DNA of 63,450 bases, the filler included, from Lenisia limosa (taxonomy: Eukaryota > Protista > Breviatea), in NCBI GenBank assembly GCA_001655205.1. It is 10 parts of 10 records of this genome, joined end to end, with 100 filler letters (N's around TTAATTAATTAA, not from the genome) between each part and the next. Parts side by side here need not be neighbours in the genome. Positions count along the whole stretch, not along the records: positions 1 to 19,192 come from LPNZ01009812.1; positions 19,293 to 20,633 come from LPNZ01004662.1; positions 20,734 to 22,005 come from LPNZ01008605.1; positions 22,106 to 25,891 come from LPNZ01004784.1; positions 25,992 to 31,650 come from LPNZ01000679.1; positions 31,751 to 47,606 come from LPNZ01006732.1; positions 47,707 to 52,976 come from LPNZ01002125.1; positions 53,077 to 56,130 come from LPNZ01006930.1; 2 more parts are not named here. The stretch is one strand, 5' to 3'. The notes below the pieces were generated by a model. That model did no database searches, was not told where the DNA came from, and was given only the letters and a program-made list of their open reading frames with translations. Below, piece after piece: positions 1 to 63,086 of this stretch. A program made the position numbers and the translations under genes. The first letter of the stretch is position 1; the number at the start of each line of letters is the position of its first letter.

Positions 1-3000
1 GCATCGAATCCGAGGGTGGTCAGCTGCCAAATAAGCTCCTCTAAACCGGTAAAAAGAGGGCTGTAAGGATGGAAAATGGGAAAATTTATGAAATGAAAAA
101 GCCCGAAATCAAGGGTGAAGGGAGAGACGTAATGAACCCAACTGTAAAGGAAGGGCAGAATGTATCCTTTGGGGATTACGAAATGGCAAAAAAAACGAAA
201 CTCATTTGCATTAAAAGCCCCACAATAACAAAGACCTACCATCGACACCTTGGGTTTCCAAATTGGAGAGTTTCCTAGGGGGTGGGCGCTCGTAGCCCTG
301 GGTGTTATTATAATATCACACATAAAAACAAAACTATATTGATATACAAATAAAGAATTGACATTGAAATTAGAACTGTGGAACGTACGCTTCGGTACAA
401 AATTGAAGGCCCACTTTATTGACCCAAGGATGCATGTACAAAATTGAAGGCCCACCTTATTGACCCACGGGTGCATGTACACCTCCTCCATTGACGCTCT
501 TTTTGTCGGATTGACCACCAACATCCGATCAATCAGATCCTTGCAACCTAAACTGGTCACACTTCAAGATCGTTTATTGAATTTCCCGTAAGAAACTAGT
601 GTGCTGGTTAGATGATGACAAAACAGAAACCAGTAGGCAATTTGTTAAAAAGACGTTTAGCGACATTGACATCGAGAAGGAACATAAAAAAAAATTCATA
701 TTCAAACAAAGTGGAAAGCCCAGAAAGGCACACGTATCATGGAACAATAATTGTAACACGCCCTCGGGTTTCAGTTTTAAACTGAACACCAAGTTGGAAC
801 CCACTTTTTGATATGAACTTTGGGACTTTGTAACGCCCGCGCTTGATTTTCTCGTACATTTCATTGAAGTCCCCGTTGTTCTCAAATGGCAAAGCCCCGG
901 CAACACAGACAAACAGCAGAACGCCAAGTGACCAAATGTCTGCCTCCGACCCCACGTATTTCTGTCTCTGCAGGGGGTTAGAAATTTATGTTACAAAAGC
1001 CCCTCAAATCACAATCTATTGGCTTAACATTCGAGGCATATCAGAGAGCACCAGTATTAGAAATCACCAAAATAGAGCAATATTACCATAAGAACTTGCC
1101 TGTGGTAACAAAGCGAAATTCACGATACTTTAAAAAATTACAATATCCTATTCGATCGTCTTAAGACAAGCCTAAACAGAGCCCACTTTGATCAACTCCG
1201 GTGCGACATAAGCTGGTGAGCCGCAGAAGGTGTCCAGCATGGAGTTTTTGTGAAAAGTGTTACTCAGGCCAAAGTCAGTGATTTTGACGTTATTGTTCTC
1301 ATCAAGAAGAACATTCTCGGCTGTGGGTGGGGGGGGGGNNNNNNNNNNNNNNNNNNNNNNNNNNNNNNNNNNNNNNNNNNNNNNNNNNNNNNNNNNNNNN
1401 NNNNNNNNNNNNNNNNNNNNNNNNNNNNNNNNNNNNNNNNNNNNNNNNNNNNNNNNNNNNNNNNNNNNNNNNNNNNNNNNNNNNNNNNNNNNNNNNNNNN
1501 NNNNNNNNNNNNNNNNTTGGCGTAAAGGTATGAACAATGAGCCAAATGATATAAAAATCCAATCAAAACAAAAGGCAGCACAAACGAGAAATTTGGAAAG
1601 AACAACAAATCACCCACCCTTGAGGTCGCGATGTGCGATATTGAGATGATGACAGTGGTCCAGAGCTGACACCATTTGTCGGAAAAAGTGCCTTGATTCC
1701 TTTTCCTGTGGACTCAAATAAAAAAGATCACTTGAGTGATATAATATAATATGATATTCAATGATATCGATATACTATACCAATATCTGATTGATATACA
1801 TATATCTACTGTGTACATCTAGGAAGATTCCGCTGAAACAACAAACACACAAAGCAAATTTCCTTCCACACAAATTAAACCGCACCAAAACGTAAACCTC
1901 ATGATATCCGAAATGAATAAAAAGGGTTCTGCTTTAGACCCAAAAAAGCTGGGGTGCTTCAACTAATAGAAAAATGCTTAGTGGCCTTTTTGGTCATACG
2001 AGAAGTTCCATATAACCCCCACCAACAAACCTGTAGCCTGCCACGTTCGACTATGTGCTCGAAAAGTTCGCCTCCAGGAGCGTATTCCATCACTATCTGC
2101 AGCTCCGTGGCGGTCTCCAAGACCTCCCACAGCTTGACCACGTTTTCATGATGCTGGAGTGGGGTCAAATATGGTGCTATGGGAGTAGTGAAATGCGAGG
2201 GACTTAATAGTTGGAAGATTGACAATACTAACGATCTAAGGCTCTGTGCAATTAATTTTTTGAAGAAGTAAATTGGCAAAATTTGAAATTAAAGTGTCTG
2301 AAATTAAGTTTACATTACAATATGTCGCACTTCAAAATTTGCAATTATATTTTCATTAAGTTGCATGGAGCCCTAAAAATAATAATTCAATTCCGATAAA
2401 ACCCTGATAATACAACCAAGTGAAAGCATACTGTAAAACAGCCATAAAAACTACTCTATAGAACCCACAACAAGCTTCATGATGGCGATTTCTCTGTAGA
2501 GATGCTGATTGGAGTATTCATCACCAGCCAATCGCGCTTTGTCAATAATCTTGATAGCAACCCTGATAAAGTCAGATGAATGTGTTAGTATATTACAATA
2601 AATAGAAATTCTAATGAACATTCAAATAAGAAGTCTGTTTAATGCCTATAAAAATACAACGTTTTCTGTCATCTCCAAATGAGTAGCATACTTAACCCCT
2701 GAGGACTCGTGCGTAGCCAGTTTGACTTTTCCGAACTCTCCTTGGCCCAAAGTCTTCCCGACAATGTACTGGCCGATTTGCCGTGGCTTCCTGGGGGAGA
2801 GGATTAAAGTTGGAAATTATTTATGGAACAAAATACCCAAAACCAACTCTGTTGACTAAACACAATTGAGAAACACATGAGGGCTTAAAAGAAACTTCTA
2901 CACCGAATTCCATCACTCCAGGTTAAAGTTGAGACTTCATGAACAAACAACGCCCATTTCAGTCGCTTCTAGCACCCCATCACGCCCGTAAAAGGAAAAT

Positions 3001-3388
3001 GAAATGAAACAAACAAAGCAAAAAGATGAAAAGTTCACGTTTGTGTGGCTGGAGTGGCAATTTCAAAACTCCTCCAACATCGGAGTTGGATTGTAATCAC
3101 TACCCCAAAGGCTAGATTGGGCAAAGAAGCAGAATCCCTTCGTCAAGAGATTGGGGGATGGAAGGACGCCACCTCCCACAGGTGAATCACATTATCATTA
3201 TTGAGTTAGCCGAAGATAAGAAACAGGGAATCCGCCAATGGTGCACACTGGTCAATGGAAGAGGCCCAGTAAGAACAAAAAAAAGGTCTAACCCGGAAAA
3301 TAGACCAAAATAGGGAGGAAAACTCTCATCTCTCTACCACACGCTGAAATATGGCGATAGAAGCAGAAGAGAAGGCTTACTTGCTCAT
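1..3388 (-). CDS. MARK/SNF1(AMPK)-related Ser/Thr kinase with UBA domain, 3'-truncated at window edge
   Basis: Hand-spliced exons 3388-3381, 2790-2692, 2562-2469, 2153-2031, 1705-1618, 1320-1187, 967-805, 547-456, 297-240, 40-<1 join in phase: [126 protein letters not shown] (UBA-like). HRDLKAEN is MARK/SIK-type. Confidence 0.93.
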
Positions 3389-3628
3389 TGTGAGAGGGCC
3401 CGTATCGTAGCGTTAAAGCCGAGACTTCTCTAAATTACACGTATAATAATTGCACTATATTGTGCTTCTTGTCAACAGGATTTTTGACAATCACTAATCA
3501 GTTAAAAGGAATCATGTGGTAGAATGATCTCCCGGGAGATATTACCTTAAATGCAATTTCAAAATTCAGCTTTTCCTTTTGCTTTCTTGTTGCCTTAGAC
3601 AACCACTAAAGAACATTAAAACGCAAAG
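3389..3628. promoter_or_regulatory. Probable bidirectional promoter between kinase and RPC9
   Basis: Only 240 bp between two divergent predicted ATGs (3388 minus, 3629 plus); position-based inference, no motif assigned. Confidence 0.5.
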
Positions 3629-61184: not shown

Positions 61185-61284
61185 NNNNNNNNNNNNNNNN
61201 NNNNNNNNNNNNNNNNNNNNNNNNNNNNTTAATTAATTAANNNNNNNNNNNNNNNNNNNNNNNNNNNNNNNNNNNNNNNNNNNN

Positions 61285-63086
61285 AGGACGCCCCACCACC
61301 GGAGACGTTTAGTACTCCACCGCCCGAAACCAAACAATCTTCTAGGTTGGGGGTAATGTGATATGTGTGCTATATGCACGCAGAAAGCTGTGTGTACAGA
61401 GAATGATTGAATGAACTATAATCCATAATGCAGTAACTCTGATAAGAGTGATGGTGTGGACGGCCTGGGCCAGATATAACCGTGTTTTATTTCTCCTAGC
61501 TATTCTCATGAATGTATACATGTAATTGGATTAACTACGTTTCAAAAAACACCATGAAAATATCGAGGGTTTATCAAGATCCAAGAGATTTGACATAGCA
61601 TTTCACTTTTCAGTCTTCCGTCCCCTCCAAAGTGCTCTCCAGAAGACGACTTGGAACCCCCAGGTATGATTATATTTGTTATATTTTGCATATTTGAGAA
61701 TACAAGTATCAAAATAAATGAACAATCAATCTTATCAAAAACTCATACTTGCTCTACTTTTATGTTCAACTCTAACCAGTCCAGCCCCCCTCGCGACATC
61801 AGCACCGTCAATGCCAATTGCACAGCATGGTAATCGTGGGGGGAGGGGGGGTAAAACGAAGGATATTTCGATGAAGAATATAATAAAATAAAAAAACCAT
61901 CACAAACACGAGCAACCAACGCTAAAACTAGACAGTTGNNNNNNNNNNNNNNNNNNNNNNNNNNNNNNNNNNNNNNNNNNNNNNNNNNNNNNNNNNNNNN
62001 NNNNNNNNNNNNNNNNNNNNNNNNNATTTGTGCATATCATATATCCCAATCATATGCAATTCAGCCCATCACTGTTCAGTTGCCTCCCCTGATAGGGAAC
62101 TGTTCCATCTTCTCCAACAGAACAAAACTCCTGTCAAGGCGCCCAACATCCGCTCACGGTTAGGGGGGGGGGGGGNNNNNNNNNNNNNNNNNNNNNNNNN
62201 NNNNNNNNNNNNNNNNNNNNNNNNNNNNNNNNNNNNNNNNNNNNNNNNNNNNNNNNNNNNNNNNNNNNNNNNNNNNNNNNNNNNNNNNNNNNNNNNNNNN
62301 NNNNNNNNNNNNNNNNNNNNNNNNNNNNNNNNAGTCCTGTTTTAACACATACAGACAGTCGCCCCTTCACAGCGGTGTGGAAACGTTTAACCTTGGCAAA
62401 TTCCCAAGCCTACAGGTACAAGGCTGGAGGTTTATTGGATTATAAATAGATTGTCCGTTCCTAATAAGGAAAGTGTCACCTTTTTAGAGCCTTCCTAATA
62501 AGGAAGGTGTCACCTTTTTAGAGCCTTCCTAATAGGGAAAGTGTCACCTTTTCAGAGCCTTCCCAATAGGGAAAGTATCAACCTGCACAAGGACGCAAAA
62601 GACGTGGCGTCGCGCGTCACCAAAACACTTTCCAGACCTTTGGCACCCTTGGAAGTGCCCCAACCAATAGAGGTCGGAGGTGCCTACATAACTTTGGACT
62701 ATAGTTAGATTTATAGTAAGTACATGTATATATTTATAGATATAAAATAAGAAACCAATAGAGGAGTGGTGGTTTTACTCATGATTATCATATATTACTA
62801 GACTGTTTTGTCATATTATGTCATGTCACATCATAGGAAAAACTATAATAATATCTTCCTTGATGTTCATATTCATTTCTCACAAATCAGGTTCCACACC
62901 TCAGCTCAGAATGGGACCTCTTAGGCCCGGCAATCAGCCACCCTAGGATCTTCACCAAAATCCACTTCATTCTCACCAACCTCAAATCCCGGAAGCCAGA
63001 GATTGAGAACAAGATTATTAATGGAGGTGGCGTGCTCGTGACGTCGATGAAGAGCGTTTTGCCTGGCATGTACTGTCTGGCTGTGG
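61285..63086 (+). CDS. Uncharacterised Pro-rich gene fragment
   Basis: Phase-compatible exons DAPPPETFSTPPPETK|LPSPPKCSPEDDLEPP|APLATSAPSMPIAQH|VASPDRELFHLLQQNK; later exons ..FILTNLKSRKPEIENKIINGGGVLVTSMKSVLPGMYCLAV. Confidence 0.4.
62460..62580. repeat. 34-bp tandem repeat x3.5
   Basis: CCTAATAAGGAAAGTGTCACCTTTTTAGAGCCTT units; intronic. Confidence 0.9.

Follow-up and report, generated by a model that had tools for sequence, protein, structure and literature searches.

A C-tailed dispersed repeat concentrated beside exons in Lenisia limosa, likely a non-autonomous mobile element with an unusual target

The stretch of DNA analysed here (the window, 63,450 nucleotides with filler) consists of ten joined contigs of the draft genome of Lenisia limosa, an intron-rich eukaryote (assembly GCA_001655205.1), and carries a short dispersed repeat, family D, whose 3' end is a run of C. 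D is real, abundant and non-randomly placed; it numbers hundreds of copies, probably thousands, which are concentrated beside exons, and splicing still works at the sites confirmed by RNA. It likely inserts in the G/C runs that mark intron ends, so that its C-rich end comes to sit beside exons. We regard it as likely to be mobile DNA, non-autonomous and unusual both in its target and in its niche, that probably leaves a usable splice signal behind.

Copies of family D and their place beside exons

Eight clear copies and one probable copy were found in the window, on five contigs and not on six as stated in a preliminary description of this DNA. They are given below with the features that adjoin or resemble them.

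1517-1548, minus strand: probable D copy in a kinase intron (1321-1617), sense, 6.7 bits; the exon is recognised as Pkinase by Pfam
17648-17734, plus strand: degenerate D-like 3' end with C-run, ahead of a small ALG11 exon and its acceptor, 7.0 bits
17745-17753, plus strand: visible end of the small ALG11 exon (Q-F-T), with a GT donor at 17754, from ALG11 homologs
17761-17894, plus strand: longest D copy, which sets the 5' edge, tail within a 118-N gap, from profile and depth
19973-20049, plus strand: 5'-short D with a C-run of at least 13, then a gap (107 N), from the profile
26031-26149, plus strand: near full-length D, 5' end after CCCC, tail running into the acceptor AG at 26148-26149, from the RNA exon start
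26843-27014, plus strand: RNA-confirmed intron in which a young 5'-short D (26956-27012, the 26957 copy) reaches the AG, from an RNA contig
32879-32940, plus strand: 5'-short D, antisense, between CCTCCC repeats (32879-84 and 32935-40), donor at 32961, from alignment (the 32883 copy)
35042-35062, minus strand: fragment of a D 3' end, upstream of a copy of another family, E (34923-34990), 8.7 bits
35862-35950, plus strand: 5'-short D (35875-35937), antisense, in a predicted 76-nt intron (35864-35939), from alignment and exon parse (the 35875 copy)
39616-39764, plus strand: long D, antisense, with CCCCAG on either side, donor at 39778, from alignment (the 39700 copy)
61836-61938, minus strand: D, antisense, with an internal deletion and its 5' end in a gap, donor at 61830, from the profile

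That a dispersed repeat lies at these places, as first described, was borne out by shuffles, pairwise BLAST and a profile. The two halves of the core had 3 and 4 matches at no more than 3 mismatches in the window versus none in 100 shuffles, and the cores are 65-91% identical among copies. A profile search returned eight copies at 30.7-64.5 bits versus at most 8.5 bits in 20 shuffled windows; these eight also seeded the profile, and the independent support is the pairwise BLAST. Searches for D motifs in metagenome, prokaryote and viral collections gave nothing, bar one 22-nt match in an unrelated GC-rich sequence, which was taken as chance; nor did they turn up DNA of a relative. The repeat at 1517, earlier listed outright, is on its sequence a probable D copy: it holds an exact 14-mer adjoining a gap of 178 N, in which the rest of the core would lie, but its 6.7 bits fall within the shuffle range and the score of its 5' part was equalled by 90 of 1000 shuffles. 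A C-tract (1325-1338) precedes the acceptor of the same intron. D proved longer than the first account gave, with starts at about 17761-17770, near 26031 and near 39622.

Host genes were delimited by a self-trained exon parse, which yielded 182 exons scoring at least 9 and 133 gap-free GT-AG introns (median 168 nt) and reproduced four RNA-confirmed introns, although these had partly seeded it. The parse bore out the earlier orientations, five D copies in sense to their host gene and four in antisense. At the six visible junctions the tail lies 2, 2, 31, 2, 16 and 8 nt from the exon, thus within 31 nt in every case, whereas a random intronic 3' end would do so with a probability of 0.153 per copy, or 1.3e-5 for six; in three control families resembling miniature inverted-repeat transposable elements (MITEs), 7 of 29, 1 of 18 and 0 of 14 ends (8/61 together) lay within 30 nt of an exon. 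Both visible sense junctions are confirmed by one RNA contig, in which intron 26843-27014 is spliced and an exon begins at 26150, so the C-tail does run into the acceptor at 26149 and at 27014, with splicing at the AG directly behind it. The intron 26843-27014 has its own G-run past the donor, then an older D-like C-rich end (26926-26957, 72% over 32 nt), and then the young D.

The antisense copies had been placed shortly after GT donors, and their tails lie 2-31 nt from four putative donors, called from open, phase-compatible reading frames. The reading frame of the exon that ends at 32962, which matches TIG weakly, is open in a protein from another assembly as well. An RNA contig of another locus carries D in antisense at about 25 nt from a donor-like GTAAGT, and no Pfam family was returned for the exons adjoining the copies at 35899 and 39700. 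At the ALG11 gene, relatives need 11 residues ending in R/K-F-S/T past the exon that ends at 17491 (borne out by 4 of the 7 relatives that cover the motif region), and Q-F-T at 17745-17753 is followed by GT, so the 17761 copy begins 7 nt past the donor of a small exon missing from the preliminary description.

A genome-wide view was obtained from the consensus of loose ends among 195,906 contigs of one DNA run. Behind the tail, the consensus of 129 contigs has 17 G/C, 10 of them G, in 21 places; in simulations G/C stayed at or below 2 for intron flanks and at or below 10 for an equal mixture, and averaged 12 for exon flanks. For G alone, 2000 simulations of a C-tail followed by intron never exceeded 1, and a tail followed by exon averaged 5.7. 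Ahead of the 5' edge, 44 contigs show 1 G/C in 14 places, a value that fits 75% of intron and 0 of 2000 exon simulations. The 3' end of D therefore lies mostly at exons and its 5' end mostly within introns. The word "always" in the preliminary description of the tail's direction was too strong, as D also occurs head-to-tail with D at other genomic loci, with periods of 35-56 nt.

Host introns are themselves polar, with a G-run in the first 25 nt of 58 of the 133 predicted introns and a C-run in the last 25 nt of 34; the reverse arrangement occurs in 5 and 1, and interior windows stand at about 5-6%. Consequently the orientation of D needs no splice-site recognition, since the C strand runs exonward at either intron end and an insert in line with it has its tail towards the exon, lying sense where the intron end is an acceptor and antisense where it is a donor. 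The orientation rule is no separate evidence of function: 59 of the 93 G/C tracts of predicted introns point at an exon no more than 30 nt away (23 and 30 in one arrangement, 0 and 1 in the reverse), and at this rate of 0.63 all six visible tails, which do face the exon, would do so with a probability of about 0.06. Most host G- and C-runs are without a trace of D, so the earlier suggestion that D itself supplies such signals lacks support as a general statement. TTTAC-like motifs precede C-tracts in 4 of 23 acceptor-side and 4 of 30 donor-side cases; near acceptors, the 20 5-mers with the strongest enrichment include CTNAC forms but not TTTAC. Many assembly gaps start at G- or C-runs, and docked copies are therefore probably under-assembled.

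Evidence for the target comes from the other end of the element. Visible 5' junctions abut a C-run in 4 of 7 copies versus 2.9% of intron positions (1e-5 for 4 of 6 with the 17761 copy omitted; about 2e-5 for 4 of 7, by hand), and C-runs stand on both sides of D in 4 of 7, which suggests that D enters pre-existing tracts. Flanking repeats of 5-13 nt accompany 5 of 6 copies (ACCCC, C7, CCTCCC, CCCCAG and an 11-of-13 match), although only the last, a direct repeat that borders the 35875 copy and overlaps both splice sites, is unusual by itself. Together with the docked tails and the exon-like flanks behind them, these junctions favour the proposal that G/C tracts at intron ends are targeted.

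Anatomy and abundance of the element

Two D-bearing stretches matched 2134 and 1722 contigs of the DNA run, and summed depth reached 213,438 on the D core against about 23 on the flanks, a sum that is not a copy number. Loose 3' ends with flanks of their own numbered 191 contigs in the three best rows for the first stretch and 217 in two rows for the second (with 99 and 108 further rows), which amounts to at least about 200 D loci. At eight copies per 59.7 kb, a genome of tens of megabases would hold thousands.

Depth rises from 30 at 17750-59 to 17,549 at 17770-79, stays at 17,549-34,630 up to 17819 and reaches 104,401-217,770 at 17820-59. The step near 17761-17770 points to a sharp 5' edge, a full length of about 150 nt and a surplus of 3' parts, the 3' part being about 6-7 times deeper than the 5' part; the degenerate end at 17648-17734 is near-unique (depth 34-85). 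Copies range from about 45 to 150 nt with a common 3' end and a variable 5' end, the 5' truncation of a short interspersed element (SINE). The 3' consensus (189 + 28 contigs) reads TTTTAC or similar and then a C-run, so D also has the homopolymer tail of a SINE, although this run may be partly target. D opens with GGCTTG and closes with a C-run.

RNA contigs carrying D are few (5 and 8 matched to the two stretches) and may be unspliced pre-mRNA or DNA. A 740-nt RNA contig of depth 43 starts within D and runs past the core without a C-run; it is possibly a retained intron end or an untranslated leader. A run search with 31751-41750 matched one DNA run and no RNA run, which has no bearing on expression.

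No inverted repeats link the two ends of D in the six regions searched, in agreement with the earlier observation that terminal inverted repeats are absent; D thus lacks the mark of a MITE, and the idea that it is one arm of a MITE was rejected on the same ground. A single 16-nt pair of 81% (32806/32929) joins the D tail to a separate tail-like motif. In 32784-32946, imperfect inverted pairs of 16 nt and 14 nt, one nested in the other, are made up of D, the tail-like motif and the start of E, on opposite strands, and 11 nt at the start of E occur in both orientations, in different copies. At 25996-26030 a small inverted repeat pairs a G-run with the CCCC preceding the 26031 copy.

Folding beyond shuffles was seen in none of eight D stretches (z-scores -0.73 to +1.12), and folding, Rfam and tRNA searches lent no support to D as a structured RNA, an snRNA or a tRNA derivative. 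Coding capacity for a reverse transcriptase or an endonuclease is likewise lacking in D, with its 150 nt or so, and no open frame in the window exceeds 176 codons.

How the element may spread

Our best reading is that D is neither a classical introner nor a MITE. With roughly even confidence, we propose that it spreads as a non-autonomous SINE-like element, RNA-copied into existing G/C tracts with its tail in line with the C strand. The C-tail would pair with a nicked G strand and so provide the priming, a reverse transcriptase would be borrowed from an unseen partner, short C-rich target duplications would arise at insertion, and later copies would land in the tails of earlier ones. Insertion would be tolerated because GT or AG remains untouched and the tail restores the tract, and TTTAC might act as a replacement branch point at acceptors. 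If D does restore the signal that it interrupts, it would follow a safe-harbour strategy inside splice signals. Mobile DNA would then have a route to reshape intron ends without making whole introns, and D would represent a class that screens for intron similarity would miss or count as introners. It also allows a direct test of the turnover of branch points and intronic G-runs by a mobile element.

D resembles SINEs and Alu-type retroposons in being short and non-coding, with a fixed homopolymer 3' end, a surplus of 3' parts, no terminal inverted repeats and both orientations; pairing of tail and target is described for Alu/L1 in the part of the source seen (PMC3812793). It differs in having a C-tract instead of an A-tail and in that no tRNA, 5S, 7SL or snRNA head was found. 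Mammalian transposable elements, according to the portion of the text consulted, are depleted near exons (PMC3088655), whereas D is enriched at splice sites. Waldo, Mino, Kibi, Koshi, Dong, MINE-1 and Micron insert into a simple-sequence tract in a fixed register, as is proposed for D; their targets are ACAY, AC, TC, TTC, TAA, GAAA or TA, not G/C runs, the first five are autonomous, unlike D, and the accessible text describes none of the listed elements as tied to splice sites (PMC3812793). In the literature searched, no poly(C)-tailed retroelement and no G/C-tract element at intron ends were found, though supplementary introner datasets lay outside this coverage and may hold a similar family.

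Several points weigh against the SINE-like proposal and the docking on which it builds. We know of no retroelement with a poly(C) tail, a gap that the literature search did not fill. No Rfam match at the gathering score and no tRNA were found in D (best E values of 1.3 and 8.6 on two copies), none of 13 B-box matches lies inside a D copy, no partner element was seen, and the upstream loose ends of D have no common continuation (agreement 0.44-0.63). The drop in depth towards the 5' end is due in part to a variable T-rich stretch (17812-17820), and summed depth is no guide to copy number. Two smaller flank groups (32 and 30 contigs) have a less exon-like consensus. The earlier placement of the 1517, 17761 and 19973 copies at acceptors is not borne out, as each of these sense tails falls within a gap (178, 118 and 107 N) that by a reading-frame estimate is longer than the remaining D and exon need, by about 150, 80 and 65 nt (gap lengths are inaccurate by about 30 nt where checkable). 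The splice models of the parse incorporate G- and C-rich positions, which biases parse-based counts towards tracts; the 5' junctions of D were placed only once the alignments had been seen; and the flanking repeats are mostly short and C-rich, with scores of 5-7 reached in 5-51% of random pairs when position is ignored.

A more specific version, in which D would be a retroposon of intron ends that lacks a promoter and owes its RNA to splicing, we consider unlikely. A sense copy docked at an acceptor would be the 3' end of the excised intron, splicing would fix its C-tract end, and reverse transcription primed at G/C tracts would seed other intron ends. Half of the new copies would become templates, each replacing the branch point and tract that it displaced; intron ends would grow as stacks with the newest copy closest to the exon, and G/C splice signals would be maintained in part by selfish copying. 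Hints of this are that no Pol III head was found and that young copies have older D-like ends before them (26926-26957, 19893-19970). Of the four antisense copies in the window, two terminate in CAG on the unspliced strand, against a background of 11 of 85 tracts (P about 0.08, not significant); the insert at 32879-32940 is among the D inserts that terminate in CAG. The nearest precedent for an intron-borne template is the snoRNA retroposons, which, in the part of the source seen, are likewise intron-borne RNAs that use borrowed machinery and often enter introns and hot spots shared with other elements (PMC1687206). These have an A-rich tail, a duplication of about 14 bp and a structured functional RNA (PMC1687206, same part), whereas D gave no Rfam match and no stable fold.

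Copying at the level of DNA alone is similarly unlikely in our estimate. On this account, a G/C tract with a break or a stalled fork would invade another tract during repair and copy the adjoining 40-150 nt, with no need of RNA or of an enzyme of D's own, and any sequence that many tracts already have next to them would thereby spread further. G4-linked polymerase theta repair is documented in animals, and such copying would account for an end fixed at the tract with a variable far end, for C microhomology at the 5' junctions of the 26957 and 32883 copies, for tandem periods of 35-56 nt, and for the several 5' variants and a second family (E) with a similar 3' end. Templated repair insertions are, however, mostly short and local, the sharp common 5' edge at 17770 suits a defined element better, and the flanking repeat of 13 nt at 35862/35938 fits a staggered cut.

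Introners offer a further comparison, as these repeats, common to introns of unrelated genes, have one end at a splice site and lie in either orientation (Micromonas, Aureococcus, Amoebophrya and fungal ILEs; PMC9860276, PMC12130899, PMC11282704, each seen in part), and one of these sources, in the portion seen, describes them as varying widely and as including non-LTR elements (PMC12130899). Introners constitute the intron, whereas D, in most copies, occupies one end and the rest of the intron is other sequence with signals of its own. That full copies of D insert into exons and create introns, partial copies being decayed or secondary, is quite improbable, although some observations favour it: the position of the 17761 copy just past a donor, the 35875 copy, which occupies 63 of the 76 nt of its predicted intron, and the flanking repeat of that copy, which overlaps both splice sites and outscores those of all 133 predicted introns. 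Against this, the RNA-confirmed intron 26843-27014 holds 113 nt of non-D sequence, where 770 of 1000 shuffles gave an equally good alignment; 44 long copies have an AT-rich, intron-like consensus ahead of their 5' edge; the 39700 copy sits in an intron of at least 337 nt; and a clean duplication at 35864-35939 would be one base off. D does not span from donor to acceptor at 26843-27014, 32883, 39700 or 19973, nor in the genome-wide 5' flank consensus. That the 39700 copy makes up a whole intron was also considered and dismissed, because a weak match to a MITE-like family, F1, overlaps the candidate exon at the 5' end of the copy. The earlier separation of D from introners that span the whole intron therefore holds for most copies, two-thirds of 26843-27014 being non-D and the 5' flanks intron-like, and fails to cover the 17761 and 35875 copies; because the latter fills most of its intron and has a repeat over the splice sites, some D copies may occasionally create introns (35864-35939).

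It is more doubtful still that D inserts anywhere in introns, with selection removing distant copies whose tails act as cryptic splice signals, or with the splice site moving to the tail. The 3' end of D does resemble a host acceptor, its reverse strand carries a G-run and GTAAAA, and introns are short. But C-runs at the 5' junctions indicate a target rather than survival, tandem copies with inward tails persist, and other families survive mid-intron.

Helitron ends have a 3' hairpin and CTRR, and TC at the 5' end. The least probable account, a Helitron-like non-autonomous element targeting a simple repeat, would explain one fixed and one variable end, the tandems and the lack of terminal inverted repeats, and a Helitron inserting in GAAA microsatellites is on record in the part of the source seen (PMC3812793), but none of the eight stretches folds into a terminal hairpin beyond shuffles, the end of D is a C-run and not CTRR, and flanking repeats are present.

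Family E, other repeats and the host genes

Family E is about 80 nt long, with nine matches in the window.

72-112: copy of E
2810-2882, minus strand: copy of E, D-like end and C-run into the acceptor at 2791
13930-13972: copy of E
19893-19970, plus strand: copy of E directly upstream of D (E-D tandem)
32742-32802: copy of E
34923-34990: copy of E
38339-38402, plus strand: weak copy of E (13.4 bits), antisense, C-run at the donor at 38404
55981-56046, plus strand: copy of E, sense, with an ion-channel-like exon whose acceptor lies 14 nt past the C-run
63423-63450: copy of E

Among the eight copies uncut by the window end, five end about 30 nt or less from a splice site with the tail exonward. 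Of the remaining three, one enters a gap ahead of an acceptor, another adjoins D on its upstream side, and the third lies tail-less mid-intron. D and E have a similar 3' end and a similar start, and E-like letters are joined to the D core in two DNA contigs, but homology between them is not significant (the best of 35 pairs was equalled by 7 of 200 shuffles).

The control families lie in introns. The MITE-like family F1 has about 25 intronic copies (e.g. 34660-34757, 38847-38931, 40992-41072, 55030-55114) with terminal inverted repeats starting GGGCTTCAC, and its 7 of 29 ends within 30 nt of an exon stand above the other two controls. Family F2 is dispersed, with core CTGGCCGAAG and 13 copies in intron interiors (e.g. 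34390-34500, 38593-38697, 61402-61503). Family F3 is a palindrome of 85 nt with 7 mid-intron copies (e.g. 5252-5336, 16222-16304, 44665-44749).

The host genes are as follows.

1-2790, minus strand: AMPK/MARK-like kinase
16336-18056, plus strand: ALG11 mannosyltransferase, exon matches 54-66% identical
19711-20448, plus strand: presumably a cyclase-like gene, named from its motifs
31751-42764, minus strand: very large many-exon protein with TIG- and RCC1-like parts
47850-52700, minus strand: cysteine-rich repeat protein
54926-56130, plus strand: a gene we take to be ion-channel-like, named from its motifs

Local tandem or AT-rich palindromic repeats occur at 12457-12787, 15864-16051, 39850-39950, 46399-46463, 60386-60527 and 62458-62580.

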